From Syntrophorhabdaceae bacterium (GTDB lineage: Bacteria; Desulfobacterota; Syntrophorhabdia; Syntrophorhabdales; Syntrophorhabdaceae), in NCBI GenBank assembly GCA_963666485.2, contig CAXXUO010000001.1:96001-160000 (forward strand): a stretch of 64,000 nt of DNA. Direction: 5' to 3'. Within the stretch, counting starts at the first letter, position 1; the number at the start of each line of letters is the position of its first letter. The translations under genes and the position numbers were made by a program. The notes under the pieces were generated by a model. The model worked only from the letters and a program-made list of their open reading frames with translations. It did not search any database and was not told where the DNA came from. Shown here piece after piece: positions 12,675-53,745 of the stretch.

Positions 12675-12704
12675 ATTCTAATGGAACGTGGTGCCGTTTG
12701 TCAA
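12675..12704 (-). promoter_or_regulatory. Sigma70 promoter TTGACA-N18-TAGAAT for the class I-type operon
   Basis: Near-consensus hexamers on the minus strand. Confidence 0.6.
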
Positions 12705-12710
12705 TCAATT

Positions 12711-12728
12711 ATGTGAAGCTTTTCACAC
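12711..12728. promoter_or_regulatory. Palindrome TGTGAA-N4-TTCACA (Rex-like or CRP-like operator)
   Basis: atgtgaagcttttcacac, just upstream of the -35. Confidence 0.6.
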
Positions 12729-13040
12729 AATCAGGCGCATCGGCACATGCTGCACGGTGCCGTCTTCATGCAGCACCCGCACGATGACCTTCTTCTTCCT
12801 GTCGACGTCAAATTCGACGACATGCTTGTGAAGGGGCAGGCAGCCGAACGTTTCGACCAGCGTCTTCTCCTGGGCCCCGAGGCTCTCTTCCGGCAGCACC
12901 ATCGGCGTTCCCCTGCGAACGTCGAGTTTGACCACCCTTTTGTAATCGACGGGGATACAGCCGTAAACCTCGATCAGATTCTTTTCGAGTTCCCTGAATT
13001 TAAGATTCGTAACCGTCCTGAGAGACCATTCTCTTGCCAT
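12723..13040 (-). CDS. Hypothetical 105-aa protein with two internal repeats
   Basis: Strong RBS GGGAGGAGG; EKNLIEVYGCIPVDYKRVVKLDVRR vs EKTLVETFGCLPLHKHVVEFDVDR. Confidence 0.8.
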   Translation of the reverse strand: MAREWSLRTVTNLKFRELEKNLIEVYGCIPVDYKRVVKLDVRRGTPMVLPEESLGAQEKTLVETFGCLPLHKHVVEFDVDRKKKVIVRVLHEDGTVQHVPMRLIV

Positions 13041-13150
13041 GATGTCCTCCTCCCTTCTCGATAACCTGACAATTGCGCCCGGGTGAAACCTGTGTTCGAT
13101 CAGCCATTCTGTGCCTCAAGGCACGTCCAACCGTCATCTGTCTACCATAA

Positions 13151-14548: not shown

Positions 14549-14561
14549 CGTCAATTTTCGC

Positions 14562-14786
14562 TTATTTTTGCATTGCCTCGGCTTTTTTCACGGCCTCGGT
14601 GAGCAGGCCGACAAGGCCCTGCACCTGGTCCGGGCTTATCGTTACGCCATCCGGCGTTGCGACAAGCTCCCCATCCGTCAATATTTTGTACAGCCTGCAA
14701 TCAATAGACTTCGTACCCTTGAATTTATCGAGGACTTCCACCACGAGACGTTCACGGACACCTGTCGATAATTTGCCCACCAGCAT
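14562..14786 (-). CDS. PC4/YdbC-like ssDNA-binding protein
   Basis: FKG...IDCRLY.....GE...T..GVTI pattern, 74 aa, AAAAGGAG RBS. Confidence 0.7.
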   Translation of the reverse strand: MLVGKLSTGVRERLVVEVLDKFKGTKSIDCRLYKILTDGELVATPDGVTISPDQVQGLVGLLTEAVKKAEAMQK

Positions 14787-18595: not shown

Positions 18596-18930
18596 AGCGT
18601 AAGGGGTACACGGTGCGCCGGCCAAACAAGCCGGTCAAAAAAGAAATAACCGGGTCGATCGAGGATATCGTCAGGGACATTACGCGCGACCGGAACATAA
18701 AAAACGAGGAGTACCGTGAACAGTCCCTTAAAATGCACGGCCTTTTCTGCGCGCGCTGCGGACGGCAGTTCGACCACACGGACAGGCACCTGTTGACCGT
18801 GCACCACAAGGACGGCAATCACAACAACAACCCGCCCGACGGCTCGAACTGGGAGAACCTGTGCACATATTGTCATGACGACGTGCACGGCCGTAATTTT
18901 TTCGCCGCGGAAGAAGAAAGAAAACAATAA
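18592..18930 (+). CDS. YajD-family HNH nuclease
   Basis: CARCGR...LTVHHKDGNHNNNPPDGSNWENLCTYCHD. Confidence 0.88.
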   Translation: MKRKGYTVRRPNKPVKKEITGSIEDIVRDITRDRNIKNEEYREQSLKMHGLFCARCGRQFDHTDRHLLTVHHKDGNHNNNPPDGSNWENLCTYCHDDVHGRNFFAAEEERKQ

Positions 18931-18949
18931 TGGATTGGAGGACATTGGG

Positions 18950-19759
18950 ATGAAAAGATGGGCCCTCACTGTATCGCTTATTTTTGTCACCGCGCTTCTT
19001 CCTCTCATATGTTTTAGCGCATCACCATCATCCGCGCTGCTCGGCGATGCAGCGAACAGGATCGAGCAATCCCTGAAGGCGATCGATGCGGACCTTGAAA
19101 AGGCCGCTAAGACCATCGGAAAAGATGTTAACGAACCAATGGGAAAAAGGCAGACGCTCAGCAATCTCTGCTCGGGGAAAAGTTATGCCGTTGATTGCGT
19201 GTTCATAAACACACGGGGGATAATGGAGACTGTCGAACCCTCGAAATACCGGAAGAACGAGGGTAAGAACATCGAAAACCAGGAACTTGTACGCCGCATG
19301 CAGAAAGATAAAAAGCCTGTGTTCAGCGAGATCTTTGCTACGGCCGAGGGCCTGCAGGGTGTTGTCTTTCAATATCCTGTCTTTGACAGGAAGAAGAAAT
19401 TCGCCGGCTCGGTGAGCCTCTTTGTCATGCCGGAAGTCCTCGTGCGCGACGCGATAAAAGACGTGAAATTAGAAAAAGGAATGGGCATTACCGTTGTCGA
19501 ACCGAGCGGCACGAACGTCTTCGCCACCGAACCGGAACAGGTACGCCTGAACGTCCTCACGAGCCCGCAGTACAAGGGATATGACCAGCTTCATGACATG
19601 GTGCGCCGCATAATCGCGGAGAAGGAAGGGGCGGGCGCGTACCACTATAAAAAACCGGGTACAGACATTGTTGTCAGGAAATCCGCCATCTGGAAGAACA
19701 TTTCTTTCTATGACAACTACTGGCGCGTGGTCCTGACGACGGAAGCGCATAGGCCGTAA
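18950..19759 (+). CDS. Exported stand-alone Cache-like sensor-domain protein
   Basis: Signal peptide; KPVFSEIF...GVVFQYPVFD...FAGSVS pattern. Confidence 0.65.
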   Translation: MKRWALTVSLIFVTALLPLICFSASPSSALLGDAANRIEQSLKAIDADLEKAAKTIGKDVNEPMGKRQTLSNLCSGKSYAVDCVFINTRGIMETVEPSKYRKNEGKNIENQELVRRMQKDKKPVFSEIFATAEGLQGVVFQYPVFDRKKKFAGSVSLFVMPEVLVRDAIKDVKLEKGMGITVVEPSGTNVFATEPEQVRLNVLTSPQYKGYDQLHDMVRRIIAEKEGAGAYHYKKPGTDIVVRKSAIWKNISFYDNYWRVVLTTEAHRP

Positions 19760-26237: not shown

Positions 26238-27405
26238 TCATTGACGGCATATTTCCAGGAGGGCCTGGACCCGCGTAAGTATCTGGCCCGCATCTCCCTG
26301 GGAATAGTCTGTTTCTATCTTTAGGAAGGGCAATCCATGTTTCTTCTGAACATGTTCTCCCACCTTGTATGACTCGACATTATATGTGTGGCACGCCTGG
26401 AGGACGACATCGACCACGGCATCAGGCTTGAACCTCTCCACCATCGAGTCGATCGCATCCAGTCTTCGTGTATTAGGTGTCATACAGGAGCAAGGGATAG
26501 TAAGGTAATGCGCCGCTATCGCCCGGACAGGATCCTCTGTGCCTTCTTCAAACCCGTGCATGTATGGTTTCATTCCCATGCATGAGTCCGGGGCAACGAC
26601 CACACCCGCCGGCTTCTTCGATGATCTTGAAAACCTTTGCGGCATCCCCCGCAATAGGGCAGCCCGTTACCATCACTCTCGGCCAGGTTTCCGGCCTGTA
26701 CGCATAACCATCCGACAGCCTCGCATCGAGCTTTCTGAAAATGTCCTCGAAAACAGGGAGCATCTCTTTCCCGGACATACCCTGGGCCACAAAGAAGAGG
26801 TCGTACAATTCCTGCCAGCCGACAATTGACGGCTTGAGCGCCAAATAGTCGAATACGCGATTCATGAGACCGATTTTCATATTCGATTCCCGTATCGCTG
26901 CCTCGATCCTCTCCTTGTCAGCTGCTTTCCCGAATTGCATCTCAAGGAACCGTATCAGCTTCCCTATCATGTTTGTCCAATTATCGAGCGCTTCCGGCTC
27001 GTCGGGAATCTGCGGGAGGTCCATGACATGCATCGGTTTATGTGATCTTATAAGCTCAAACATCTTTTTCTTGCCGTCGCATGTCGTTTCGGCGACGACA
27101 GCGTCCGATAATCCGAAGAAAGGGCATGTGTCGGTAATAATATACCCGTAGCTGGATTTTATGAGGGAACAAAGATTGCCCGGCAGTACGGCTTCCGCTT
27201 TTTCGATTGGAGTATTTGAAAAAGCACAGAGGACCGCCGGAACATGGCCCATGGCACGGATGATCTCGACCGGGGCATACGTGCAGTATACTCCCACGAT
27301 CTTGACATCTTTGGTTCTTTGCGACTGGAGGTATGCCAGAAGTCTTTTGGTTGGTACATCGCCGGTATATTCGTCATCAAAAAGAGGTTCTCTATTAGTG
27401 TTCAT
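26238..27405 (-). pseudogene. Double-cubane-cluster protein (HgdAB-like anaerobic reductase) with a +1 frameshift near 26605-26607
   Basis: GVYCTYAPVE, LCSLIKSSYG, CPF, ETTCDGKKK and GCP in one frame; DSCMG, CSCMTPN, ACHTYNVE and ETDYS in the next. Total length 1168 = 3n+1. Confidence 0.85.
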
Positions 27406-30559: not shown

Positions 30560-31174
30560 ATGGAAGACCAAAAATTGTATGCTTTACCCGACCTGCCCTA
30601 TGCATACGATGCCCTCGCTCCGTACCTGTCAAAAGAGCTCGTGACTTTGCATCACGACAAGCACCACGCGGCGTATGTCAATGGCGCAAATGCGATCCTT
30701 CAGAGGCTGGACAAGGCGAAGGCCGACGGTGCAGATTTCGACACCAAGGCCACATACAAGGAAATGTCGTTTCATATAGGCGGTCACCTGCTCCACTACA
30801 TCTTCTGGGAAAATCTGGCCCCGGCCGGCAAGGGCGGCGGCGGCGCGCCGACAGGTGTTCTTGCCCAGCTTATCGACAGGGAATACGGCTCGTTCGACCG
30901 TTTCAAGAAATTATTCTCGGCGGCCGCGACCAGCGTCGAAGGCTCCGGCTGGGCAACCCTCACATTCTGCAAGCTGACGAACAGGCCGATCATCATGCAG
31001 GTTGAAAAACATAACGTCAACGTATACCCGATGTTCAGGATCCTGATGGCGCTCGACGTCTGGGAACACGCCTACTATCTCGACTACAAGAACGACCGGG
31101 CAAAATTCGTAGAGGCCTACTGGAACATCGTGAACTGGGGGGCGATCAGCAAGAGTCTGGAAGAGGTGCTGTAA
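30560..31174 (+). CDS. sod: Fe/Mn superoxide dismutase
   Basis: [29 protein letters not shown]. Confidence 0.97.
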
Positions 31175-31180
31175 ACAAAA

Positions 31181-31225
31181 GTTCCAGGTTCCACGTTCCA
31201 GGTTCCACGTTAAAGACAAGAAATT
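31181..31225 (+). repeat. GTTCCA(C/G) x4 plus tail, 45 bp identical to 19766-19810
   Basis: gttccaggttccacgttccaggttccacgttaaagacaagaaatt at both sites. Confidence 0.93.
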
Positions 31226-31227
31226 TC

Positions 31228-31256
31228 AGCCGGGGTCTTCGGATCCCGGCTTTTTT
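31228..31256 (+). terminator. Intrinsic terminator of sod
   Basis: agccggggtc-ttcg-gatcccggct followed by a T run. Confidence 0.88.
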
Positions 31257-31327
31257 GTACTTCCTTTGGGTCAATTAATTTTCTTAAATGCCACATCAAC
31301 TTAGACAAAAATCATACAATGATACCA

Positions 31328-35507: not shown

Positions 35508-35727
35508 TTTTTTCACACGTCCACTTCGTATATCTCGCATATATCAAATTTAATTCGGAAAACAATGGAATGCAAACGAAAAACAGGCTTGCCTTCTTGA
35601 AATACTAAAAGGTATACTCACAAAAAGTGTGTGGCAGGCTTTATCGGCTCTCCCGGCCGAGAAGAGAAGGTATGTCGAAAAGGTCCGTGACCGGACTTTA
35701 AGTTATTTCCGAACGTGGGGTTCACAT

Positions 35728-37083
35728 ATGATCCGTGACACATATTGTTTCCCGTTGAAGAAACAAAACGGAGTATCGCTGGCGATCATTATTTTACTCA
35801 TGATCGCTCTCGTTCTCGGCGGTTGTTCGAAAAAACCGAAACAGCAGCCGCATCAGGCCGAAGTTACCGTCATGGCGATAAAACAGGCGGACACTCCTGT
35901 GGCGTTCGAATTCGTAGCCCAGACACAGAGTTCCCATGAAGTGCAGATACGGGCGCGTGTCAGCGGATTCCTGGAAAAACGGGTCTACACCGAAGGCACG
36001 GTCGTAAAAAAGGGCAGCACCCTTTTCCTAATGGACAAGAAACCGTTCCTGGCCCAGGTGGCTGCGGCTGCTGCTGCGCTGGCCCGGCAGAAATCGAACC
36101 ACGAAACGGCGCGCAGGAACCTGGAGCGTGTAAAGCCCCTTGCCGAACAGAACGCACTTTCCCAGAAAGACCTCGACGATGCCAACCGTAATTTCGAAAC
36201 GACGGCGGCGGAGGTCGAGCAGGCCAAGGCCCAGCTCCTGACACAGCAGCTCGACCTGTCCTACTGCACGATCACATCGCCCATCACCGGGATAACGGCG
36301 GCGGCTATGGTCCAGGACGGCGCTTACGTGAACATGCAGAACAACCAGCTGACCACCGTCTCGGTCCTGTCCCCCATGTGGGTCAATTTCAGCATCTCCG
36401 AGAACGACGTGAAGAGGTATGCGGACAGGATCGCCTCGGGTTCGATCATTCCCCCGAAGAATGACAATTACGAGGTTGAAATAATCCTGGTCGACGGGTC
36501 CATATTCTCCGAAAAAGGCGCAATAACCTTCGCTTCCCCGTCGTACGACGCGAAAACCGGTACATTCATGCTCAGGTCGAGCTTCCCCAATGCAAAAGGA
36601 TATCTCCGGCCAAATCAGTATGTCCGCGCCCGATTGAAAGGGGCCGTCCGGCGGAACGCTATATTAATACCCCAGCGGGCCGTTCAGCAGGGTGCCAAGG
36701 GACATTTTGTATGGGTGGTGAACAAGGAGGGGAAGGCCGAGTTCAGGCCGGTAACGGTCGGCGATTGGTACGGTGACGGTCTTTTTATCGATACGGGGTT
36801 GCGCACCGGTGATCAGGTCGTCGTCGACGGTATGCTTGGCGTGCGCACGGGCGAAGCGGTAAAGATCAAGCAGGCGGCCGCGGAACAGCCGACCGGCAGG
36901 CGGCCCGGCGAGGCCCCGGCGATCAAAATGGAACAGGCACTGCCCAAACCTCCGTCAAAACCGGACGCTTCGGCGACCCCCGCCAAAAGCGCGGCACCAC
37001 CGACTGAAGCAACCGCTCCGGGAAAACCCGCCGCGAAGCCGGCGGCTGCCGGATCGAGCGGGAGCACGAAACAGGGGAGGTAG
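35728..37083 (+). CDS. RND efflux periplasmic adaptor (MFP) with a Pro/Ala-rich C-terminal tail
   Basis: Lipobox LGGC, IRARVSGFL, VKKG.TLF, ITSPITG, IPQRAV; start uncertain. Confidence 0.92.
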   Translation: MIRDTYCFPLKKQNGVSLAIIILLMIALVLGGCSKKPKQQPHQAEVTVMAIKQADTPVAFEFVAQTQSSHEVQIRARVSGFLEKRVYTEGTVVKKGSTLFLMDKKPFLAQVAAAAAALARQKSNHETARRNLERVKPLAEQNALSQKDLDDANRNFETTAAEVEQAKAQLLTQQLDLSYCTITSPITGITAAAMVQDGAYVNMQNNQLTTVSVLSPMWVNFSISENDVKRYADRIASGSIIPPKNDNYEVEIILVDGSIFSEKGAITFASPSYDAKTGTFMLRSSFPNAKGYLRPNQYVRARLKGAVRRNAILIPQRAVQQGAKGHFVWVVNKEGKAEFRPVTVGDWYGDGLFIDTGLRTGDQVVVDGMLGVRTGEAVKIKQAAAEQPTGRRPGEAPAIKMEQALPKPPSKPDASATPAKSAAPPTEATAPGKPAAKPAAAGSSGSTKQGR

Positions 37084-37086
37084 GGC

Positions 37087-40000
37087 ATGTTCTCCCGGTT
37101 CTTCATAGAACGACCCATCTTTGCGACCGTCGTCGCCCTCATCATAGTCATCGCGGGGCTTGTCGCGATGAAATCACTTCCCGTCGCCCAGTACCCGACG
37201 ATAACCCCGGTCCAGATCCAGGTCACAACAACATACCCGGGCGCCGACTCCAAAACGGTCAGCGACTCCGTGGCGGCACCCATCGAGGCACAGATCAACG
37301 GCGTCGACAACATGCTCTACATGACGTCGACGAGCTCGAACACCGGCCAGTTGACCCTGACCGTGTATTTTACGCTGAACACCGACCCCGACATAGCACA
37401 GGTCCAGGTCCAGAACAGGGTGAGCCTTGCCATGCCGCAATTGCCGGAAGCCGTGACGCAATTCGGCGTTTCTGTCGAGAAAAAATCATCCAACATCCTG
37501 ATGATCGTTTCGGTCTTCAACAAGGACGGGCGCTACTCGGCGGATTATGTCAACAACTATGCGAACGTGTACGTCCTGGACGCGGTAAAGCGGGTGGAAG
37601 GCGCGGGCCAGGCGCAGATATTCGGACTGCCCGACCAGGCAATGCGAATCTGGATGAACCCCGATCACATGGCATCACTCGGTATCACGACGACGGATAT
37701 CCAGCAGGCAATCGCGAAACAGAACGCCCTCTGGGGCGCCGGGCAGGTCGGCCAGCAGCCAAACGACCCCAAGGTCCAGTTGACCCTGCCTGTCGTTACC
37801 CAGGCGCCGTTCACGAATCCCCGGCAATACGAGAGCATTATTCTCAAGACAAGCACAGACGGCTCCGCCATAGTCACGGTCGGAGATGTTGCCCGGGCCG
37901 AGGTCGGCAAGAAACAATACATTGACGACAACAAGGTGAACGGGATCGCGGCCACCCCCGTGGCGGTATACCAGCAACCCGGGGTGAACGGGCTCGACGT
38001 GTCGAAGGCCGTCCGGAAAACCATGGAAGAATTGAAGAAGTCAATGCCGGACGGGATGGATTACAGCATCACGCTCGACACGACGGATTTTGTCCGCATC
38101 TCGATCGAGGAAGTTGTCCACACTCTTTTCGAGGCGGTCATCCTTGTCGTTTTCATCGTCTACCTCTTCCTGCAAAGCTTCCGCTCGACCATAATCTGCA
38201 CCGTGGCCATATTCGTCTCGCTCATTGGAACGTTCTGCGGAATGCTGGTGTTGGGTTTTTCGATCAATATGCTCACTCTCTTCGGGGTGGTGCTCGCCAT
38301 AGGCATGGTTGTCGACGACGCGATCGTCGTCGTCGAGAATGTCGAGCGAAACATGATGAAAAATCACCTGCCTCCAAAGGAAGCGACCATAAAGGCCATG
38401 GAGGAGATCGGCACATCGCTTATCGCCGTCGTGCTCGTTATGGCCTCGGTCTTTATCCCTGCCGCCTTTCTTCCCGGTACGACGGGCCAGCTCTACAAAC
38501 AGTTTGCGATCACGATCGTTATCTCGGTCGCCCTTTCCGGTTTTACCGCACTGACGCTGACACCCGCAATGTGCGCCATCATGCTCAAGCACGGTCAGCC
38601 GTCCGAAAAGGGCATCTTCAAATATTTCAACCGTTTTTTTGGATGGTTCAACCGCGGCTTCGATCGTTTCACGGTTTTGTTTGGCGACCTGGTCGTTATG
38701 ATGATCAAGAGGATGACGATCGCTTTCTGCGCCCTGGCACTCTTGATCGCCGGGCTCCTGTATCTTTTCCACGCGATTCCGACCAGCTTCGTACCGAATG
38801 AAGATCAGGGTTACCTCATGGGTATTCTCCTCATGCCGGATGCGGCCAGCTTAAAGCGCACGGCTGATGCGGCCGATGAGATCGATAAGATCTTCGCAAA
38901 ACAACCGGGCGTCAAGGACCGTACCATCATCAACGGCTACAGCCTCCTCGACAGCCAATTCAAATCAAATGCCACAACGTTCTTTGTCACACTCGATGAT
39001 TTCAAGGAACGATACTCGTCCATGAAGAAAGCAAAACAGCAGAACGCACGAGCTATCGTGCAGGGTGTCATGGCACAATCCGGCCACTTGCAAAAGGGTA
39101 TCTTTTTTCCTATCATCCCCCCCGCCATACCCGGTATCGGGACGACCGGCGGATTCGAGTTCTGGATCCAGGACAAAGGGACCGGGGACCCGGCGGCGCT
39201 GTACGACGTGACCCAGAAATTTCTCGAAAAGGCCCGGACACGCCCGGAACTTACGAGCCTCAATTCCACCTACAAAGCTGCATCTCAACAGATACGGGCA
39301 GATGTTGACCGCTCGAAGGCCATGCTCCTCAACGTCCCCGTCGAAGACGTCTACAGTACATTGCAGGCGCAATTCGGGTCTGTTGTGGCGAGCCAGTTTA
39401 ACCAGTACAGCAGGGTGTGGAACGTGACCCTCCAGTCGGATGCCCGCTACAGGCAGAGACCTGAAGATATTACGAGGCTTTATACGCGATCGAGGACCCA
39501 GGACATGGTCCCGCTTTCCGCTGTCGTGTCGACAAAATTCGTAACAGGCCCGGACCTCATGTCGCGGTTCAATGGTTTCCCGGCCGCCCAGATCACGGGA
39601 AGCGCTGCTGCTGACAGAAGTTCCGGCGAAGCCATCAAGGCGATGGAAGAAGTAGCAGCGGAGGTATTGCCCCAGGGGTACAGTTTTGCGTGGTCCGGTA
39701 TGGCATTTCAGGAGAAACAGTCGGGCGGCACATCGTCCTCGGCATTTGTCTTCGGCCTCATTATCGTCTTTCTCATTCTCGCCGCCCAGTTTGAGTCGTG
39801 GGTCATGCCTGGCTCTGTTATGACGGCGGTGCCATTCGGTATCCTTGGCGCCCTTTTCTTCAACTATTGCCGCGGACTTGAAAATGACGTGTACTTCCAG
39901 ATCGGCCTTCTCGTGCTCATCGGGCTCGGGGCCAAGAATGCCGTTCTCCGTGTTGCCTTTGCATCGGAGCTCAGAAAACAGGGACTGTCGATCATGGACG

Positions 40001-40311
40001 CGACGATACAGGCAGGTGAACAGCGCTTGCGGCCTATCATCATGACATCTCTTGCGTTTATCTTCGGCGTATTGCCTCTCGCCATAGCGACCGGTGCGGG
40101 GGCAAATGCGCGCCATTCTATCGGCACCGGCATCATAGGCGGCATGATCGGGGAGACCACGCTTGCCATGCTCTACGTGCCTCTCTTCTTCTATATTTTC
40201 GACGGACTGGCCGAGCGCTCTGCAGAGAAGAAAGAAAAAAAGAAAAAAACTCAGGAGGCGGTGGAAGGAAAACCGCGCGAAGACCTCCTGCCGGACAAGG
40301 AGGAGAGCTGA
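37087..40311 (+). CDS. HAE1-family RND efflux permease
   Basis: FFIERPIFA, LPVAQYP, AIGMVVDDAIVVVENVER, RLRPIIMTS. Confidence 0.96.
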   Translation: MFSRFFIERPIFATVVALIIVIAGLVAMKSLPVAQYPTITPVQIQVTTTYPGADSKTVSDSVAAPIEAQINGVDNMLYMTSTSSNTGQLTLTVYFTLNTDPDIAQVQVQNRVSLAMPQLPEAVTQFGVSVEKKSSNILMIVSVFNKDGRYSADYVNNYANVYVLDAVKRVEGAGQAQIFGLPDQAMRIWMNPDHMASLGITTTDIQQAIAKQNALWGAGQVGQQPNDPKVQLTLPVVTQAPFTNPRQYESIILKTSTDGSAIVTVGDVARAEVGKKQYIDDNKVNGIAATPVAVYQQPGVNGLDVSKAVRKTMEELKKSMPDGMDYSITLDTTDFVRISIEEVVHTLFEAVILVVFIVYLFLQSFRSTIICTVAIFVSLIGTFCGMLVLGFSINMLTLFGVVLAIGMVVDDAIVVVENVERNMMKNHLPPKEATIKAMEEIGTSLIAVVLVMASVFIPAAFLPGTTGQLYKQFAITIVISVALSGFTALTLTPAMCAIMLKHGQPSEKGIFKYFNRFFGWFNRGFDRFTVLFGDLVVMMIKRMTIAFCALALLIAGLLYLFHAIPTSFVPNEDQGYLMGILLMPDAASLKRTADAADEIDKIFAKQPGVKDRTIINGYSLLDSQFKSNATTFFVTLDDFKERYSSMKKAKQQNARAIVQGVMAQSGHLQKGIFFPIIPPAIPGIGTTGGFEFWIQDKGTGDPAALYDVTQKFLEKARTRPELTSLNSTYKAASQQIRADVDRSKAMLLNVPVEDVYSTLQAQFGSVVASQFNQYSRVWNVTLQSDARYRQRPEDITRLYTRSRTQDMVPLSAVVSTKFVTGPDLMSRFNGFPAAQITGSAAADRSSGEAIKAMEEVAAEVLPQGYSFAWSGMAFQEKQSGGTSSSAFVFGLIIVFLILAAQFESWVMPGSVMTAVPFGILGALFFNYCRGLENDVYFQIGLLVLIGLGAKNAVLRVAFASELRKQGLSIMDATIQAGEQRLRPIIMTSLAFIFGVLPLAIATGAGANARHSIGTGIIGGMIGETTLAMLYVPLFFYIFDGLAERSAEKKEKKKKTQEAVEGKPREDLLPDKEES

Positions 40312-40312
40312 T

Positions 40313-41830
40313 ATGCGTAGACGCGTCTTGCTCATTCTCTGCGCATTATTTGTCCTCCTGGCAACCGGCTGCGCGATAGGCCCGGATTATAAACGGCCTG
40401 ATATGGATGTCCCCCAGGCCTTCCGGTTCGACGGGGAAGGTTCGCGCGAGGTTGCCGACAGCGAATGGTGGAAGCAATTCAATGACCCCGTCCTTGAAAA
40501 ACTTATCGTCGAGGCGCTCGCGAACAATAAGACCGTCAAGATAGCCGCGGCCAACGTCGATCGGGCGTCCGGCATCCTCATGTCGACCCGCTCGCTGTTC
40601 TTCCCGCAAATATATTATAGCGGGATCGGGCAGCGCGCCCTGCAATCCAAGAACACCGTCCAGATCGTTCCGGAAGATCCGTATAACACCTTTCAGGCAG
40701 CCGGCCAGGCAAGCTGGGAGATTGACCTCTGGGGGCGCATCCGCCGCCTGTCGGAATCGGCGAAGGCCAACCTGTACGCAACGATGGAGGCACGCCGCGG
40801 TATCGTCATGTCCCTGATAACAGAGGTCGCATCGTCATACATACAACTGAGGGCCCTTGACGAACAGCTCTACATTGCCAACGAGACATTGAAATCCTAC
40901 GGGGAGTCGGTCAGAATATTCGAATTGCAGAACAAGTACGGCCAGGTATCGGGCATGACCGTACAACAGGCCCGGTCGCAATATGAGACCGCCGCGGCCC
41001 AGATCCCGCAGATCGAGGTCCAGATCGCCAAGACCGAGAATGCCCTCTCCATCCTCCTCGGCCGGAACCCCGGACCGGTCGAACGGGGGTTGAAACTCTC
41101 CGAGCTCAAGATGCCCCCTATTCCCGCAGGATTGCCTTCAGACCTTCTCTCGAGGCGCCCTGATGTTCTCCAGGCGGAACAAAGCCTCATCGCGGCAAAT
41201 GCCCAGATGGGTGCGGCAAAGGCGCTGTTTTTCCCGACAATATCTTTAACGGGGGCCGCGGGATTTGCGAGCGAGGAACTATCCACACTCTGGCTTGGTC
41301 CCAGTAAGTTATGGAACTATGCAGGAAACGTCACCGGGCCCATCTTCACCGGGGGCAACATACTGGGCCAGTTCAGGCAGTCCCAGGCGAGCCGGGAGGC
41401 GGCGCTCTACTCGTATCAGCTGGCCGTGCAGTCCGCGTTCGCCGATACCGAGAACGCGCTTATATCGAGAAAAAAGATACTCGAACAGCTCGCAGCCGAA
41501 CAGCGCAAGGTCATAGCGTTCCGGGAATACGAAAGGATGGCTGAACTCCAGTATAATGCCGGCTATACAACGTATCTGACCGTCCTCAACGCACAGCAGG
41601 AGCTCTTCCCCGCCGAACTGCAGGCAGTGCAGACAAATGCGTCCTGTTACATAGCGGTCATAAACCTGTATAAGGCGCTCGGCGGTGGGTGGATCGCGAA
41701 AGGGGAAGCACTCACTGTCCCGAAGGATATGGCCAGCGCCGTTCAGACTGACGGCACGGGGGCAACGCCTGCGAATGAATCGAAAAAAGAGGCCGCACCG
41801 AAACCGGGTTCAGAAGCGGAAAAAAAGTAG
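40313..41830 (+). CDS. RND outer-membrane factor lipoprotein (NodT/OprM family)
   Basis: Lipobox ATGC, GPDYKRP, SWEIDLWGR, PAGLPSDLL.RRPD, LYKALGGGW. Confidence 0.94.
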   Translation: MRRRVLLILCALFVLLATGCAIGPDYKRPDMDVPQAFRFDGEGSREVADSEWWKQFNDPVLEKLIVEALANNKTVKIAAANVDRASGILMSTRSLFFPQIYYSGIGQRALQSKNTVQIVPEDPYNTFQAAGQASWEIDLWGRIRRLSESAKANLYATMEARRGIVMSLITEVASSYIQLRALDEQLYIANETLKSYGESVRIFELQNKYGQVSGMTVQQARSQYETAAAQIPQIEVQIAKTENALSILLGRNPGPVERGLKLSELKMPPIPAGLPSDLLSRRPDVLQAEQSLIAANAQMGAAKALFFPTISLTGAAGFASEELSTLWLGPSKLWNYAGNVTGPIFTGGNILGQFRQSQASREAALYSYQLAVQSAFADTENALISRKKILEQLAAEQRKVIAFREYERMAELQYNAGYTTYLTVLNAQQELFPAELQAVQTNASCYIAVINLYKALGGGWIAKGEALTVPKDMASAVQTDGTGATPANESKKEAAPKPGSEAEKK

Positions 41831-42644: not shown

Positions 42645-43445
42645 TTATCTCGACAGCCGCAGGATCCGCAGCGCTCCCCTGCTCAGCAATATGAAAACGA
42701 TCGTCCCAACCGCCAGGTCCGGTATCTTGGATCGGGTCAGATATACCAGGACACCCGCAATGATAACCCCGACATTGACAATGACATCCATGGATGTGAA
42801 CATCATGCTGGCCTGCATATGCGCCTCCTTGCTCTTCGAACGCTGGAGCAGGTACAGGCACAATACGTTGCCGGCGAGGGCAAAGATCGATACCCAGATC
42901 ATCGTCAGAAAATTGGGCGCCGGTTCGTGCCCGAGAAATCGCCGGATGACCTCGAGAAAACCGAGGACCGCGAGCACCGCCTGAAAATACCCCGCTATCC
43001 CTGCGATTCTTTTCTTGCGGGTGACCGAATCCCCGACTGCCAGGAGGGACAGGCTGTAGACGATGCTGTCGGCAAGCATGTCGAGGCCGTCTGCAACAAG
43101 CCCCATCGAACCCGCGATGAGGCCGGCGATCATCTCCGCTACGAAGAAGAACAGGTTGATGGCGAGCACCTGGCAAAGAACGCGGCGCTGCCGGGAGTGT
43201 TCATCGGCAGGCCCTATGTATTCGACAGCCTCGGATGAGATAAATGTCGTATCAAGCTTGAGGCCGTCGAGCGCATCGAGGATCCCGTTGTAATTGTCTG
43301 TATGGTATACCTGCAGCAGTCGTTCCGGTATATCAAAGACGAGATTCCTGATGCCGGGCAGTCCCTCAAGCCTTGAGCGGACCAACTGCTCCTCGGTCGG
43401 TCAATCCATCTTCGCTATTTTAAATGATGTCCTTATAATTGTCAT
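42645..43445 (-). CDS. CDF-type cation efflux transporter with an N-terminal HMA-like domain; in-frame TGA at codon 15 (43401-43403), candidate selenocysteine
   Basis: MTIIRTSFKIAKMD-[TGA]-PTEEQLVR is in frame with ORF 42645..43385; TM domain has ADGLDMLAD, H..AS..FTSMD and PD. Confidence 0.75.
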
Positions 43446-43458
43446 ATAGTCCGCTAAC

Positions 43459-44304
43459 CTATTTTTCGGCCTTGTCGAGGTCTTTACCAATGTCCCGGGT
43501 AAGGTCTGTCGTCAGGTAATCAAGCGTGACGGGAAGACCAACGTCGAGCCGCGGGATGTGCTGTATGCCTATACGGACCTTCTTTAGCGAACACTGCATC
43601 ACATGCCCCCCGCGCAGGCGGTCCTCGCTCAGGAAATGGACGTGGTATCCGGGTGCATTGAGTGATTCCATGAATGCAGGTGTGTAAAAGCCGGCAAGCG
43701 ATCCTCTGGCGTTGTGAACCTCAAAAACAGTCTGGTCCTTTGTCGCTTCTACGAGGGGCGTGTAGTTTTCCGATCTCGGGGCAGCCCTCAATTTCATATG
43801 TTCGAATTCACCATCAACCCGGATAGCGTAGAGCATATTCCTCGACGGGATCAGGTCGTCGAGGGTCTTTGCAAGGTCATGGGGGGCTGAATCCCCGATA
43901 TCATCAAAGGTGTCGGGGCTGAAAAAGGTCACGCAGGCAAACGGCGAATGCTGATCGTCAGATACCCCGTAAACGTTGCCGTCGGAGCGGACCTGGAACA
44001 CCCTGCCGTCGAGGACGACCATCTCGCCGTCGAGAAAATCGAACGTGCCGAGGCCGAAATCGCCATGCTGCCTGATCTCCCCGATCGTGGTATTTTCGAC
44101 ATAAAGGCCTTCGACAAGGGCATTGATCGGCGCGGAAAGGTAGACGGCATTGGTTCTTCCCGTGCTGACGAGAAATTGGCGCAGCGCCTGCTCCACCAGT
44201 TCCGAGGCGGATAGCCCTGTTCTCTCCATAGCCTCTGTAAGCTGCTTCAAGGTATCGTACGACAACAGGATCTCAAGTTCGGTCGCGTTTTCCTTGTCGG
44301 CCAT
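43459..44304 (-). CDS. Alpha-acetolactate decarboxylase family protein with an N-terminal ribbon-helix-helix-like extension
   Basis: HGDFGLGTF..LDGEM, PFACVT.F, GFYTP, GYHVHF.SEDR..GGH. Confidence 0.88.
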   Translation of the reverse strand: MADKENATELEILLSYDTLKQLTEAMERTGLSASELVEQALRQFLVSTGRTNAVYLSAPINALVEGLYVENTTIGEIRQHGDFGLGTFDFLDGEMVVLDGRVFQVRSDGNVYGVSDDQHSPFACVTFFSPDTFDDIGDSAPHDLAKTLDDLIPSRNMLYAIRVDGEFEHMKLRAAPRSENYTPLVEATKDQTVFEVHNARGSLAGFYTPAFMESLNAPGYHVHFLSEDRLRGGHVMQCSLKKVRIGIQHIPRLDVGLPVTLDYLTTDLTRDIGKDLDKAEK

Positions 44305-45957: not shown

Positions 45958-45992
45958 AACAGGGTATCCATCCATCGGATAGATACCCTGTT
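45958..45992 (-). terminator. Hairpin terminating the bam operon
   Basis: aacagggtatc...gataccctgtt, followed on the minus strand by a short T-rich run. Confidence 0.75.
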
Positions 45993-46014
45993 GTCATCAC
46001 GTAATTGTTTCTTT

Positions 46015-46848
46015 CTACTCTGCTGCTTCCTTCGCCTTCTTTACCACCGCCCTCTGGTCGGGGGGAGGAGGAGGCGGGACGGCGCCCTCCATCTTCGATA
46101 TCGCCCGGAACTTCGGCGGGCAGACCTCGAAGCAGGTGCCGCACCGGATGCATTTGTCCTGATCGATGATGTGGATCTGCTGCTTTGCGCTGATGACTGC
46201 ATCAACGGGGCAGCGCCGTGCGCAGGTCGTACAGGCCTGGCATTTCTCGGGGTCGATCCAGTAGGAGAAGGGCTCGGTGAACTGCTTCGTCACTTCTTCG
46301 AGCGTAAAGTAGTTCTCGTGCCCGTCATGGCCCTCCAGGCGCCCTGCGAGCTTCTCGCGGTTCGCGATCTTGAGGTACGGGAGCTTCGCCTTGACGAAAT
46401 CAAGTTTCTTCTTGAGCTCTGCCGGTTCTATGCCTTCGGCCTTGCCCAGGGGGCCTATGCCTTTGATAGTCTTCACGAAGGCATTCACCGATTCCGTGAA
46501 GACGTTCGCCTCGGCGCCCGACATAAAGTTGATGCGCAGCCTCTCGGGGTTCACGCCGATGTATTCCAAGATGCGCTTCATGAGAAGCACCATGTTCTGT
46601 GCCTGGTAGTTGCCATGGGTGATGTAGTTGCACTCGCCCAGGTGGCATGCGCCCATGAAGACGCCGTCGATGCCGTTCTCGAACGCACGAATGATAAAAC
46701 CCATATCCACGCGCCCCGAACACATGACGCGGATGATCCTCATTTCTGTTGTATATTGCAGTCTGGACACGCCAGCCAGGTCAGCGGCTCCGTACGCTCA
46801 CCAGTTGCAGGCGAAGCCGAGGACTCTCGGTTTAAATTTTGTGCTCAT
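46015..46848 (-). CDS. bamF: BamF: MvhD-like [2Fe-2S] selenoprotein with a C-terminal 2[4Fe-4S] domain; Sec at codon 17 (TGA 46798-46800)
   Basis: MSTKFKPRVLGFACNW-U-AYGAADLAG matches MvhD CNWCSY.AADLAG; RVMCSGRV, CH.GEC.Y..GN; two CxxCxxCxxxCP motifs. Confidence 0.93.
46771..46788 (-). promoter_or_regulatory. Candidate SECIS of bamF
   Basis: GCCGCU-GACCU-GGC-U-GGC hairpin with a bulged U, starting 9 nt after the UGA. Confidence 0.6.
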
Positions 46849-46874
46849 TATGTCCGACCTCCTTTATAGACTTG

Positions 46875-49800
46875 CTACTCGGCCGCCGCGGCCGCATCTA
46901 TCAACTTCTCGATCTCGCCGTCAGGTACGACAACGTCGATCTCGCTCACCATTTCCTCATCTGTATAATGGCGCAGCTGGATGGCGCCTGTCGGGCACTT
47001 GGTGTTGCACAGGCCGTCACCTTTGCAGAGGACCGGATTGACGAACACTTTCCTGCCCGCCTTCGTATCCCTGACCTCGAGCGCCCCGTATGTGCAGATC
47101 TCGGCGCAGGCGCCGCAGCCCATACACTTCTTTTCGTCCACCGCGCAGACGGAACCCGATGCCACGACGATATCATTGGCGAGGAGGGTCAGCACCCTGC
47201 CTGCCGCGCCGTAGGACTGGTTGATCGTCTCCTGGATGAACTTCGGGTAATGTGCAAGGCCGCACAGGTACACGCCGTCGGTCGCAAACTCGACCGGGCG
47301 CAGTTTCACGTGGGCTTCCTTGAAGAAACCGTCGGGGGAGAGCGTCACCTTGAACTGGTTCGCCACTTCCTTTGTAGCCGCGGAGGGAATGACGGCGGCT
47401 GCGAGTGCTATGATGTCCGCGTCGAGTTCGAGCTTCTTGCCGAGGATATAGTCGATAACCGTCACTTTCAGGACGTCGCGCTTGTCTTCGGACTTGCCCG
47501 GTTCGATCTCGGGCGGGTTCTCGGGTTCGTAGCGGATGAACTTCACGCCCTTGTCCGCTGCCAGCCTGTAGTAGTCTTCATTGAACCCGTAGGTGCGGAC
47601 ATCCCTGAAGAGCATGTAGATGTCCATGTCGGGGTTCTTTTCCTTGAGAAGGAGCGCGTTCTTGATCGATTCGGAACAGCATATCCTCGAGCAGTAGTTG
47701 CGTTCCTCGTTCCTGCAGCCGACGCACTGGATCATGACGAGTCCTTTCGCGCCGACGACGGCCTCATCCTCTGCCACGATCTTCTCCTCGAGTTCGAGGT
47801 GCGTGAGCACCCGCGGGTCCTGCCCGTAGAGGTATTCGGTCGGGGTGTACATGTCGACGCCGATCGCAATGACCGATGCGCCGTGTTTTATAACTGTCTC
47901 CCCCCTGTCGGACTTGATAGTGGTTACGAAGTTGCCAACGTAGCCGGTCGCATCCGTGATCTGCGCATTGTGATAGACGTGAATGAGGGGGTTCTTGTAG
48001 ATCTTCGATTTAAGGTCTTTCAGGTATTCCTGGACGTCGAGGCCCTGGAGGGTCGTGTGGATCTTGCGGGCGATGCCGCCGAGCTCTTTGTCTCTCTCGA
48101 CGAGGAAAACCTCGTGGCCCTGGTTCGCTATGGACATCGCTGCGTTCATACCGGCGATGCCGCCGCCGACAACGAGGGCACGCTTGTCGACGGGGAGGTC
48201 GAATTCCTGGAGGGGCTCGAGCTTGCAGGCCCGTGCAACGGACATCCTGATGATGTCATGGGCCTTCTCCGTCGCCTCTTCCTTTTCCTTCTGGTGGACC
48301 CAGGAGTTGTGCTCCCGTATGTTCGCCATTTCGTAATAGTACTGGTTGATGCCTGCCTCGCGCAGGGTGTCGCGGAAGAGGGGCTCCAGGGTTCTCGGGG
48401 AGCATGCCGCAACGACAACGCGGTTCAAGCCTTCTTCTTTAATCTTGTCCGTTATCTCACGGGCGGAGTTCGTCGCGCAGGAGAAGAGCTGTTCCTGGGA
48501 ATAGACGACGTTGGGGAGTGTCTTGCAATATTCCACCGTGCCCGGGACGTTGACGATACGGCCGATGTTCGCGCCGCAGTGGCAGACGAAGACGCCGACC
48601 CGCGGTTCTTCCTGGGAGACGTCCTTCTCTTCAGGATATATTCTCTCCTTCGAGAGGTTGCCGCGACGGTACTGCAGCATCTCGCCGATCTGGCTTCCCG
48701 CGCCGGAGGCACTGAAGACCGATTCCGGGATGTCGATGGGGCCCTGCAGGGCGCCTGAGACGAAGATGCCCTTGCGGTTCGTCAGCATGGGGTTTCTCGG
48801 GTCGATGTTGCAGAAGTTGTGCGACTCGAGTTCGATACCGAACTTCTTCGCGATGTCTTCCACTTCCTTCGGGGGATTCATGCCGATCGAGAGGACGACC
48901 ATGTCGAACTCTTCCTCGATGACCCCTTCCTCGGGCGTTGAGTATCTGATTGTCACGTTGTGCGTGACCGGGTCTTCTTTCACTATGGAGGGATAGCTCC
49001 TGAAGAAGCGTATGCCGGGCAGTGCCTCGGTCCTCTCGTAGTAGCGCTCGAAGTCCTTGCCGTACGCGCGCACGTCGTTGTGGAAGATCGTGCATTTCGC
49101 GTCCGCGTCGTGGTCCTTCGTCAGGATGACCTGCTTCTGGGTGTACGTACAGCACACCGCCGAGCAGTAAGAGTTGCCGCCCTCAATCACCTGGCGGGAG
49201 CCGATGCACTGGATCCACGCGACATTGTGCGGGTGCTTGAGGTCCGACTTCCGGAGTATCTCGCCACCGTAGGGGCCGGTGGAGCACAGGAGCCTTTCGT
49301 AGTCCATGCTGGTGACGACGTTCTGGAAGTCACCGTAGTGGTACTCCTCACGGACCTTCGGGTCAAAGGGCTCAAAGCCGGGGGCGAGGATGATCGCGCC
49401 GACGTTGATCTCTTTCTTCTCGGGCTTCTGGTTGAGATCGATCGCGTTCTGCTTGCAGACCGCTTCGCATATCTTGCATTTCTTCTCTTTGAGGTAGAGG
49501 CAGCTCTCGTCTATGTAGGTGATGAGCGGGATGGCCTGTGCAAAGTAGACGTGGACCGCCTTGTTGAGCGATATGTCCTGGTTGTACTGGTCCGGGTACT
49601 TCACCGGGCAGTACTCCACGCATACCGTGCAGCCCGTACACAGGTCTTCCTTGATGTAGCGGGGCTTCCTCAGTAATGTTACGTTAAAATCTCCTGCATC
49701 TCCCTCTACGTGATCAACTTCCGTATAGGTGAGAACTTCGATGTTGGGGTGCCGGCCGACCTCGACCAGCTTCGGTGCGAGAATTCACATCGAGCAGTCG

Positions 49801-51242: not shown

Positions 51243-51788
51243 TTACTGCTGGTCCTTCTGGGACATCCGGGTCAGAGTGTCGGCCAGTTTGTCCATACCG
51301 TATTTATCGATCATGGACTTAAGGCTGTTCTCCACCTCTTCCGCCTCGAGACTTTCCTCGACCTCTTCTTCCCTTTCTTCATAGATAAGGGCGTCGTTCA
51401 AGCACCACTTAACGCACAAAGGTTTTTCAAGAGGCGGGTCGTCTTCGCACATATCGCACTTGAGCGGGAGGCCGGAATCCGGTTCTTTGAATGCGTCCCG
51501 GGAGGGGCACGATGCCCTGCAGAACCCGCACTCGTCGTACTCTTTGCCGTCGATGATGTACTGGTCGCGGCCCATGCACTCGGCTGCAGTATACTCACCG
51601 GCATACACCGGAACGTAGACGTCACGGATTGGATCGCGGATCATGCGGATGCGGGACCGTGCCGGGTTATTGCTTGAATACTTCGGATTAGCATGGAAGG
51701 CGGAGCAGATCACTTCGCATGCCCGGCAGCCATTGCACTTATCAAGATCGATCTTGATTTTCTTAACTATCTTCTTAGTCTTGGCCAT
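51243..51788 (-). CDS. bamC: BamC: ferredoxin-like subunit of class II benzoyl-CoA reductase
   Basis: CNGCRACEVICS, ECGFCRASCP, KCDMC...PLCVKWC. Confidence 0.92.
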   Translation of the reverse strand: MAKTKKIVKKIKIDLDKCNGCRACEVICSAFHANPKYSSNNPARSRIRMIRDPIRDVYVPVYAGEYTAAECMGRDQYIIDGKEYDECGFCRASCPSRDAFKEPDSGLPLKCDMCEDDPPLEKPLCVKWCLNDALIYEEREEEVEESLEAEEVENSLKSMIDKYGMDKLADTLTRMSQKDQQ

Positions 51789-53745
51789 CTTTGTATATCC
51801 CTCTCTGTTCAAAGTCTTCGGCAACATAGCCCAGATCCAAATTCTTCAAAGTTTCCTTTTTAGGAATACCATCCATGTTCCAACCTTTGAAATTGTAGTA
51901 TGCGTCGAGAAGTTTCTCTTCCAGTTCCGGGAACCTCTTCTTCCAGTGGTCTTCGGGCGGCTTCTCGTCTGCCCTGCGGAGCCCTCGCCTTACGTTGATG
52001 GAACGGACGAGGGTGCGGTTCCGTGCGTAGACCTTCTTTATATCGTCTTCGCTCATATCGATGCCCGTCGATGCAGAGACCATCTTCGGGTAATTATGCA
52101 CATGGTACGGCGGCTTCAGCGGGAAGGAGGACAGGCCGGCACAGACTCCGAGGGAGTCGTCGAGATAGTGCATCATCTCCTGCCAATCCACGATATCTAC
52201 CGACATGTCGACGGTCGGGAAGTACGGGTTCGATTTCTCGCCGCGCATTTCCCATTCCATGACGATCTGTTTGAATTTGTCGTCGGGGCACTGCGGCCAA
52301 TCCCGGATGAAATTCTCTTTCTCTTCCTGCGTCGCAAACGGCGCCTGCGGGAACTGCCCTTCGATCTGGGTAATGTTTATCTTCTCGCCGGTCGCATACA
52401 TCAGGAAGTAGACCGGGTTGAGCATGCCAAGTTTCAAGGGAAGCTGCTCGTGTTTCTTGATATTGTTGTGGGCATATATGTCCGCGCCGTTTCCGATCTT
52501 CTGCGCGGCCCAGTATGTTCCGTCGGCCAGGATATCGCCGATGCCTTCGCGGCGGACGAGCCTGTCGAGGAGCCAGTAGAATTTGCCTTCGTTGTCTGTC
52601 GGGCAGCCTTCGAAATCCTTGTCTGAGAGGATGCCGGCTTCCCTGAGCTCGTAAGCGAATGCCAGCGTCTGCGGTACGGAGAACCCGTCGACCCCGTATT
52701 CCGTTGCCTTCTGTGCGATCCTGAAACCGAAGTCGAGGTCTTCGACAAACGCGGCCATTGAATACGTGAGTTTGGAGAAGCATTTCATCATGTACGTCGA
52801 GATGCCCGGGACGGATATGATGGCGCCGCATTTCATCGGGCAGTTGTAGCAGCTGATGAGGCGCTTGCGCACGCTCAGCTGGGTTTCTTTCCATTTCTTT
52901 TCGATCTCGGCGTTCCAGAAATCTTTCCGCCGTGCCCGGGAGTTCCCCCACATGAAGTTTTCCGTATGCCATTTCTCGTCGACATGGAGCATTTCCTGCG
53001 GTGAGCCAAGGCCCTGGAGGATTGTCATGACGTTCGGGACCGGGTTTTCGTTCCTGTATTTTATGTACTCGAGGACCTCGTTGCACAGGTCGATAAATTC
53101 CGCAGGCCGTGCCAGGTTAATGTCTTTCGTTCCCCTGACAGCGATGGCCTTCACGCCTTTATCGCCCATAACGGCACCAAGCCCGAGGCGGCTTGCGCTT
53201 GAACGGCCCTGCTCGATCGAGGCCATGAAGACCCTGTTCTCGCCGGCAAGACCGATAGCTGCCACCTGGCAGTTCGGCTCGTTGAGTTCCTTCTTGATGA
53301 GCTCCTGCGTCTCGACGGCGCCCTTCCCTTTCAAGTGGGAAGCGTCGCGGATCTCCACCTTGTCGTTGTTTATCCAGATGTAGACAAGGCTCGGTGATTT
53401 CCCGCGAAGGACGATCTTATCATAGCCTGCATATTTCAATTCCGGCGCGAAGAAGCCGCCCATCATCGAATACCCCATCAACAAAGTCTGGGGTGAGTAC
53501 GCGGTTATGATGGTCCTGTTTGCGCCAGGGGCAGGTGTACCGCCAAAGAGGCCGGCACTGAACGTAAGAGGGATATCGGCGTCGAAAGGATCTATCTCGG
53601 GGGGAACCCTATCCCATAAAAGCTTGGAACTGGTCCCCAAACCGCCAAGATAAAGTTCCGTATCCTTGGGATCGGTCTCGACACGCTCGACATTGCCTGT
53701 GCTTAAATCGATTTCCAGGTTAAATCCGTTTTCTCCATACCTCAT
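51775..53745 (-). CDS. bamB: BamB: tungstopterin active-site subunit of class II benzoyl-CoA reductase (AOR family)
   Basis: Recognisable BamB sequence: DTELYLGGLG, GSPQEM...EKWHTENF, SCYNCPMKC, TYMMKCF, GEKINITQIEGQFPQ, CAGLSSFPLKPPYH. Confidence 0.95.
   Translation of the reverse strand: MRYGENGFNLEIDLSTGNVERVETDPKDTELYLGGLGTSSKLLWDRVPPEIDPFDADIPLTFSAGLFGGTPAPGANRTIITAYSPQTLLMGYSMMGGFFAPELKYAGYDKIVLRGKSPSLVYIWINNDKVEIRDASHLKGKGAVETQELIKKELNEPNCQVAAIGLAGENRVFMASIEQGRSSASRLGLGAVMGDKGVKAIAVRGTKDINLARPAEFIDLCNEVLEYIKYRNENPVPNVMTILQGLGSPQEMLHVDEKWHTENFMWGNSRARRKDFWNAEIEKKWKETQLSVRKRLISCYNCPMKCGAIISVPGISTYMMKCFSKLTYSMAAFVEDLDFGFRIAQKATEYGVDGFSVPQTLAFAYELREAGILSDKDFEGCPTDNEGKFYWLLDRLVRREGIGDILADGTYWAAQKIGNGADIYAHNNIKKHEQLPLKLGMLNPVYFLMYATGEKINITQIEGQFPQAPFATQEEKENFIRDWPQCPDDKFKQIVMEWEMRGEKSNPYFPTVDMSVDIVDWQEMMHYLDDSLGVCAGLSSFPLKPPYHVHNYPKMVSASTGIDMSEDDIKKVYARNRTLVRSINVRRGLRRADEKPPEDHWKKRFPELEEKLLDAYYNFKGWNMDGIPKKETLKNLDLGYVAEDFEQRGIYKDGQD

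Follow-up and report, generated by a model that had tools for sequence, protein, structure and literature searches.

The 64-kb window analysed here (the whole stretch of contig CAXXUO010000001.1 from a Syntrophorhabdaceae bacterium, positions 96,001 to 160,000, in whose numbering coordinates are given) contains on its minus strand a putative metal exporter gene, 43445..42645, that very probably encodes a full-length protein containing selenocysteine (Sec), with Sec predicted at codon 15. The features of the gene are listed below, including a candidate selenocysteine insertion sequence (SECIS).

42645..43445, minus strand: full exporter gene, 266 codons plus a TAA stop, with an HMA-like N-domain, a six-helix CDF membrane domain and the proposed Sec at codon 15
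43450..43452, minus strand: weak ribosome-binding site GGA before the ATG
43443..43445, minus strand: ATG start, found at the aligned position also in the related loci L001 and L002
43401..43403, minus strand: proposed Sec codon TGA, residue 15, motif KMD-U-PTEE
43383..43385, minus strand: TTG, the start chosen by open reading frame (ORF) callers for a model of 246 amino acids (aa), judged not to be the real start
43360..43383, minus strand: proposed bacterial SECIS hairpin of 10 bp, with a bulged G at 43378 and the apical loop GGC at 43372-43370
43224..43439, minus strand: HMA-like cytoplasmic N-domain, beta-alpha-beta-beta-alpha-beta, residues 3-74
42651..43211, minus strand: CDF transmembrane domain of six helices, residues 79-265

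The upstream gene ends with a TAG at 43461-43459 and is followed by a 13-nt spacer containing GCGGA and then by the exporter ATG at 43445-43443. The frame opened by this ATG reads MTIIRTSFKIAKMD (14 codons), continues with the TGA at 43403-43401 as codon 15 and goes on with PTEEQLVRSRL. The TGA is in frame with the TTG-started 246-aa ORF 43385..42645, and its readthrough gives a product of 266 residues (P0001), with which the full-length Cys relatives (264-265 aa) align end to end. An earlier sequence-only reading of this DNA had described the ATG, the weak GGA ribosome-binding site just after the upstream stop and the TGA in frame with the 246-aa ORF, all of which are seen in the sequence. 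It had also anticipated that ORF callers would truncate the gene, and this is the case both for the 246-aa “cation transporter” model and for the database entries of relatives, which start at varying residues.

The codon aligned with the TGA was compared across genomes. A scan limited to a single genome for each species recovered at least 581 related stretches, from which the 79 best loci, with 80 gene copies, were retained. The codon was assigned by motif in 77 copies, while the three loci with a differing motif were resolved separately and all carry Cys. In the 80 copies the aligned codon is TGC in 55, TGT in 22, TGA in 2 and TAC in 1. The two TGA copies, which come in addition to that of the window, are found in L001 (CAIQJW010000029.1; 82% identity) and L002 (CAZENE010000013.1, labelled Syntrophorhabdus; 75% identity), and these are the closest relatives among the loci kept. 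The survey corresponds to the check that the sequence-only reading had itself proposed, namely independent genomes with TGA at this codon and Cys elsewhere: TGA recurs in two further genomes and is not confined to this assembly, and 77 of the 80 copies have a Cys codon.

Both L001 and L002 have an ATG and 14 codons in frame before the TGA. In these 14 codons, the pairwise codon differences among the three TGA genes are 12 synonymous against 9 non-synonymous, which indicates that the peptide preceding the TGA has been kept as protein. Downstream of the TGA, the products of the window, L001 and L002 share 75-82% protein identity. The in-frame UGA is therefore aligned with Cys in homologues and flanked on both sides by conserved coding sequence. 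Moreover, three loci with TGA (window, L001 and L002) and two with TGC (L063 and L070) have a common neighbourhood, with pcnB and/or an acetolactate-decarboxylase-like gene (alsD) upstream and an outer-membrane efflux gene downstream. This shared neighbourhood shows that the TGA and TGC genes are orthologous Sec/Cys pairs at one locus.

The database proteins give a similar picture. The protein set comprised the best 120 matches, which are the window's own 246-aa ORF and 119 others. Among these 119, the 107 matches with 61-70% identity are all full length and have Cys at the site (107/107); the 12 matches with 75-89% identity all lack the N-terminus. These 12 truncated entries begin at five different aligned residues (21, 29, 36, 39 and 46). 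Such varying starts are those of a gene caller taking the first start available after a stop, and not the pattern of a conserved alternative start. In a tree computed from the protein portion common to the query and its relatives, the query and the 12 truncated rows lie on one side of a branch with a support of 100 in the Shimodaira-Hasegawa-like approximate likelihood ratio test (SH-aLRT). Judged from these sequences, this clade is consistent with a single change from Cys to Sec that has been retained since. One of its members, P0013, is publicly annotated as a truncated “cation transporter.”

Some other copies of the family differ from this general pattern. In L006 (4031-4060; CAWEQT010000001.1, 63% identity) the ligand position is occupied by TAC (Tyr), within ISKMDYPSEE, and this is the sole copy among the 80 with neither Cys nor TGA. 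In the protein P0007 (373 aa), the CDF membrane domain is preceded by two HMA-like domains in tandem, both containing MDCPSEE. The N-terminal 45 residues are letter-for-letter identical in L060, L065-L067, L069, L071 and L073-L075, and L068 differs from them by one residue. These ten near-identical loci (about 4001-4786 in most) span Bacteroidota genera that include Sphingobacterium, Paenimyroides, Vaginella, Planobacterium, Edaphocola, Paludibacter and others. This suggests that the Cys form has recently spread by horizontal transfer; in one instance, L016, its neighbours are a multicopper oxidase and a P-type ATPase fragment.

A hairpin that may direct the insertion of Sec lies within the gene, at 43383-43360. 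Its stem begins 17 nt and its loop 28 nt after the TGA, and the pairs run in the order G.U, G-C, U-A, C-G, C-G, bulged G, C-G, U-A, C-G, A-U and A-U. Every minimum-free-energy fold contains it. The hairpin holds the longest run of the gene that is identical in all three TGA genes (19 nt, the next longest being 11), and it alone among the 7-codon windows of the gene has the same base at every third position, against 32% of third positions for the gene overall; codons for the same residue are identical across the three genes in 59 of 185 cases. All pair cells (30/30) are paired in the three TGA genes, with the outer pairs varying between G-C, G.U and A-U and between U-A and U.G, and one stem pair differs on both sides, from G-C to A-U.

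The hairpin is, in addition, confined to the TGA forms. When the 33-nt segment at the same offset was compared between the three TGA genes and the 75 non-TGA copies, it folded at −11.4, −9.0 and −9.5 kcal/mol in the former and at a mean of −2.0 kcal/mol (standard deviation 1.8, minimum −6.0) in the latter, so that a value of −7.5 kcal/mol or lower is reached by 3/3 TGA forms and 0/75 of the others. Among these 75, the syntenic TGC orthologues of comparable GC content, L063 and L070, fold at −6.0 and −5.6 kcal/mol with different pairing. In bacterial SECIS elements, the apical loop must contain G and lie at a distance of about 16-37 nt from the UGA. The element found here is a stem-loop shortly after the UGA with G in its apical loop, and from its sequence it is likely to be a SECIS. 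The sequence-only reading had instead singled out the pairing of GAGC (43391-43388) with GCUC (43378-43375). This 4-bp hairpin with a 9-nt loop does exist, but it is not the main element, given that it shares, and competes for, the 3′ arm of the 10-bp hairpin and is chosen by no fold.

The organism appears to use Sec in two other genes of the window, as had been suggested from the sequence alone. Their in-frame TGA codons, which we take to be the known (classic) Sec positions of their families, are the following.

49785..49787, minus strand: in-frame TGA of an HdrA-like gene (46875 to about 50030, start uncertain), motif TNDCSMUILAPK
46798..46800, minus strand: in-frame TGA of an MvhD/FlpD-like gene (46015-46848), motif FACNWUAYG

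The downstream part of the HdrA-like gene matches the NCBIfam model HdrA2 with E 3e-222, and the readthrough product of the MvhD/FlpD-like gene matches Pfam FlpD with E 3.6e-46. The HdrA-like gene, together with the MvhD/FlpD-like gene, gives indirect support to the decoding of UGA as Sec in this organism. The HdrA site also has an 8-bp hairpin, with the loop AGGU, at a distance from its TGA similar to that seen in the exporter gene. The genetic code itself is standard, since TGA terminates 6 of the 32 family-supported ORFs in the window, and this rules out a reassignment of TGA.

The two genes are adjacent, and the plain ORF list gives a 5′-truncated HdrA. A second TGA is found in the HdrA-like gene at 50024, three codons after its first ATG, and the 292-aa ORF 45991-46869 (plus strand), which the ORF list places opposite the MvhD/FlpD-like gene, is probably spurious. 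Other frames containing TGA (12681-13064, 14138-14614, 18716-19759, 30911-31294 and 51243-51872) are not selenoprotein-like. A “bamE” candidate that had been mentioned in the sequence-only reading was not located, one small ORF having been tested. A scan of the window with Rfam at gathering thresholds gave 0 matches.

The domain composition of the protein was explored using profile searches and a predicted structure. The membrane part is recognized by Pfam as Cation_efflux (PF01545, residues 94-263; E 4.4e-17, 62.9 bits versus a cut-off of 26.6). A scan of P0001 with NCBIfam release 20.0 at E≤1 returned general CDF models below their cut-offs (TIGR01297, 71.2 versus 82.35 bits) and weak chance matches; it contained no selenoprotein model, and no ATPase model was matched in the Pfam and NCBIfam scans. 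An AlphaFold2 model of the 266-residue product was built on the 120-row family alignment. Its N-domain consists of strands 3-10, 32-38, 43-48 and 66-74 and helices 16-26 and 53-61, with a predicted local distance difference test score (pLDDT) of 82-88, and residue 15 lies in the beta1-alpha1 loop. The N-domain is followed in the model by six long helices, the last of which ends the fold. Foldseek matched this domain in the PDB to yCCS domain 1 (root mean square deviation of 1.4 Å over 69 columns), Atx1 and the HMA domain of OsHIPP43, with target-normalised TM-scores of 0.77-0.89. The predicted structure is thus an HMA fold with its ligand in the beta1-alpha1 loop, which is the classical HMA ligand position. 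HMA matches at E≤0.01 were obtained for 43 of the 120 family members, the best being 8.3e-6.

The ligand motif of the family is K-M-D-C-P-[ST]-E-E, and M13, D14, C15 and E19 are conserved at 90% or more in the 120-row alignment. The CxxC motif is absent: a single Cys or Sec is followed by P-[ST]-E-E, and the position of the second Cys is Glu throughout the family. For the membrane part, Foldseek against the PDB gave matches to ZnT1, ZnT8 and YiiP, the lowest E being 2e-6 and the query-normalised TM-scores 0.50-0.60. The transport site of CDFs (site A) has four residues, as H/D-xxx-D on each of TM2 and TM5. In the profile alignment to ZnT8, D122 and D126 fall on H106 and D110 of transmembrane helix (TM) 2 and D220 falls on D224 of TM5, while the position of His220 in TM5 is taken by the invariant F216. 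There is no C-terminal cytoplasmic domain, the protein ending just after TM6 at residue 266 and the Pfam match at 263. On the model, the protein is a CDF-type membrane domain without a C-terminal domain, to which an N-terminal HMA-like domain is added. The sequence-only reading had proposed such a fusion, with the TGA at the metal-ligating Cys; this is supported by the predicted fold, the Foldseek matches and the TGA/Cys pairing; the Pfam HMA match stays below its cut-off. Its premise that Zn/Cd transporters carry MDCP(S/T)EE in their HMA domains could not be confirmed outside this CDF family, a domain search and the literature having given no result. A search with the N-domain (residues 1-75) against proteins of 467-2000 aa, as a test of the link with Zn/Cd P-type ATPases, recovered 0 of 97 candidates at E≤0.001, which is weak evidence.

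Several observations weigh against a Sec-containing HMA-CDF exporter. With regard to Sec, selA, selB, selC and selD are all missing from the 64-kb window, and ARAGORN found 0 tRNA genes there, and hence no tRNA-Sec. The ribosome-binding site before the ATG is weak, and the TGA of the 12 truncated relatives is deduced from their start positions and not read from DNA. The hairpin folds no better than dinucleotide shuffles, with z of +0.38 to +1.05 for 60-nt segments and −0.85 for the 32-nt core, and its covariation is not significant with three sequences, as 341 of 500 shuffles reach the count. Because the fold energies at the HdrA and MvhD sites of the window are likewise no better than shuffles, the energy z-score was dropped as a criterion in favour of conservation and exclusivity to TGA forms. 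With regard to the protein, the Pfam HMA match (PF00403, residues 8-48; E 7.8e-4) has 20.2 bits for a cut-off of 24.8, and the whole AlphaFold2 model is of moderate confidence (mean pLDDT 74.2, predicted TM-score (pTM) 0.52). When the N-domain sequence was compared with solved structures, nothing significant was obtained, the best relevant match being the N-domain of MerA (2kt2, E=2), and no tested substrate was found for any member of the HMA-CDF family.

One alternative is that the TGA is a true stop, with the protein starting downstream, at TTG 43385, without the first strand and the metal loop, and with the 14 upstream codons as a decaying remnant. ORF callers and the public annotation use the corresponding 246-aa “cation transporter” model, and both the weak ribosome-binding site and the unexceptional energy of the hairpin would agree with it. 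We nevertheless consider it very improbable. The upstream ATG, the frame and the peptide are kept across genomes that are 75-82% identical, with 12 synonymous changes, and the TGA itself has persisted across a whole clade whose proteins diverge by up to 25%. The TTG, which the sequence-only reading had named as a competing start, fails in this role: L002 has CTG at that position and its first usable start leaves an ORF of 221 aa, and the relatives start at five different residues, so that no downstream start is conserved. The resulting products would, furthermore, lose one to three secondary-structure elements of a compact fold.

A further alternative is that UGA-15 is read through without Sec, for example when a near-cognate reading inserts Cys or Trp, helped by the downstream hairpin. 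Selenium itself is not directly evidenced, and the genes of the Sec machinery are not seen in the window, both of which leave room for this explanation. It is nonetheless given very little weight here, considering that the HdrA and MvhD/FlpD genes of the same organism also have an in-frame TGA, at the known Sec positions of their families, that the TGA of the exporter replaces Cys specifically, which is the usual Sec/Cys pattern, and that the apical loop is G-rich with a spacing like that of the HdrA site. That the TGA arose through faulty sequencing or assembly, or as a recent nonsense mutation found in this assembly alone, is favoured only by the general experience that many in-frame stops turn out to be errors. 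This explanation is negligible given that L001 and L002, which were assembled independently and differ at the species level, have the same TGA, and given the 12 separately truncated protein clusters from several sources. As far as the compared sequences go, the TGA is neither an error nor a private nonsense mutation, because the same codon is TGA in two further genomes in which the upstream ATG and 14 codons are kept.

The Sec-containing exporter would work as follows. The SelB/tRNA-Sec system would insert Sec at UGA-15 under the direction of the in-gene hairpin at 43383-43360, and the protein would act as an exporter of divalent metals. The HMA-like N-domain may capture or sense cytosolic metal through the selenolate of Sec15 together with D14 and E18/E19, and it may then hand the metal to, or gate, the Asp-rich membrane site formed by D122, D126 and D220. 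Alternatively, the N-domain could be a sensor, a role that is held by the C-terminal domain in canonical CDFs. A role of Sec15 as a ligand rather than in redox chemistry is suggested because there is no partner cysteine. We infer from sequence that selenium is inserted and that Sec binds metal, and the same holds for the identity of the metal and the direction in which it is moved. Cys relatives in Bacteroidota have a TonB-dependent receptor, or a multicopper oxidase and a P-type ATPase fragment, as neighbours, which speaks for metal handling in general and does not settle the metal.

The closest known proteins are the short HMA-like/CDF transporters in the Cys form (264-265 aa), found in Syntrophorhabdaceae, Bacteroidota and others. 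They have the same architecture, 61-70% identity and the loop KMDCP[ST]EE, and two of them (L063 and L070) occupy the same locus. Unlike the window gene, they have TGC or TGT in place of TGA and lack the downstream hairpin. They are annotated as “cation transporter” or “Co/Zn/Cd efflux system component.” Canonical CDFs (YiiP/FieF, ZitB, CzcD and ZnT1/ZnT8) have the same six-helix membrane domain, with Asp at the transport-site positions of TM2 and TM5. They differ in having a C-terminal cytoplasmic domain and a His in TM5, where the present exporter has no C-terminal domain, an N-terminal HMA-like domain and F216.

Among selenoproteins, the UxxC P-type ATPase (ABB15669.1, compared by description only) is also a predicted selenoprotein heavy-metal exporter and has Sec in its N-terminal HMA-type metal-binding motif. 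It is, however, not a CDF and has a partner Cys in UxxC, whereas the exporter described here has a single Sec flanked by carboxylates (D-U-P-T-E-E). The SO_0444 family (Cu/Zn efflux, USC motif) and the MerT-like selenoproteins also have Sec in place of a metal-contacting Cys in a metal transporter, but they belong to unrelated folds and families, with Sec inside the membrane permease, and P0001 has no such NCBIfam match. In the release scanned, P0001 matches no model of the catalogued transporter selenoproteins, namely the UxxC P-type ATPase, SO_0444, MerT-like and Sao proteins.

Haft and Gwadz give SO_0444 and the MerT-like proteins as the only two prokaryotic transporter selenoprotein families that they could validate before that work (10.1101/2022.07.06.499078). 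The main text of a review of May 2026 (PMC13188914) lists as transporter-related selenoproteins the cation-transporting ATPase (UxxC), a putative mercuric transport protein, YeeE/YedE, SaoX, SaoB, SaoP, SaoC and SO_0444; the terms PF01545, PF00403, “CDF” and “diffusion” are absent from that text. No CDF selenoprotein was found in the literature searched, and the supplementary tables of large selenoproteome surveys might already list one. The exporter is therefore rated as a new selenoprotein family that follows a known principle, the replacement by Sec of a metal-contacting Cys in a metal exporter. The non-redox use of Sec in such a protein, which the sequence-only reading had put forward, agrees with the missing partner Cys, yet it has predicted precedents in the UxxC P-type ATPase, SO_0444 and MerT-like proteins.

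The surroundings of the gene provide some further observations. The upstream gene (43459-44304, minus strand) is a homologue of acetolactate decarboxylase that has at its N-terminus a DNA-binding segment of the ribbon-helix-helix (CopG) type (RHH_1, residues 14-45, E 1.9e-4), and the fused protein could have a regulatory role. The gene also occurs in L001, L063 and L070 but is missing in L002 from the interval that separates the exporter from pcnB. The genes of a complete RND efflux system, with adaptor, permease and outer-membrane factor (35629-41830, plus strand), are convergent with the exporter locus, and the one for the outer-membrane factor is retained as a neighbour of the exporter in L001, L002 and L063. 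Further away, a double-cubane-cluster reductase homologue (26238-27405, minus strand) is broken into two ORFs that overlap in different frames, cover profile positions 9-254 and 252-371 and join near 26604-26612. The cause of the break is not a TGA but a frameshift, which may be real, programmed or due to faulty assembly. Four genes at 8412-12601 (minus strand), with two activase-like and two catalytic-like subunits, resemble benzoyl-CoA reductase or 2-hydroxyacyl-CoA dehydratase, and this cluster fits an aromatic-degrading syntroph of the Syntrophorhabdaceae.

With the predicted protein, the CDF superfamily would be added to the few transporter families that include selenoproteins. The proteins of an entire Syntrophorhabdaceae clade are at present annotated as N-terminally truncated “cation transporters,” and would need re-annotation and a dedicated pipeline model. 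Most bacterial selenoproteins are redox enzymes whose Sec is part of a redox motif, UxxC or similar. In the present gene a lone Sec would take the place of the lone Cys of a metal-binding loop, which would make the syntenic orthologues a clean natural Sec/Cys pair for the role of selenium in metal binding and transport. More tentatively, and as a possibility that we regard as open to considerable doubt, this may be the first selenoprotein of the CDF superfamily, in which a lone Sec serves as a pure metal ligand in a carboxylate-rich D-U-x-x-E site, with the HMA-like domain that bears this site taking over from the usual C-terminal sensor of CDFs, and in which selenium retunes the exporter to soft metals and ties its synthesis to the selenium supply. 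If this were true, the exporter would be retuned towards Cd, Hg, Pb and Cu(I), and selenium status would be linked to metal efflux in syntrophic anaerobes.

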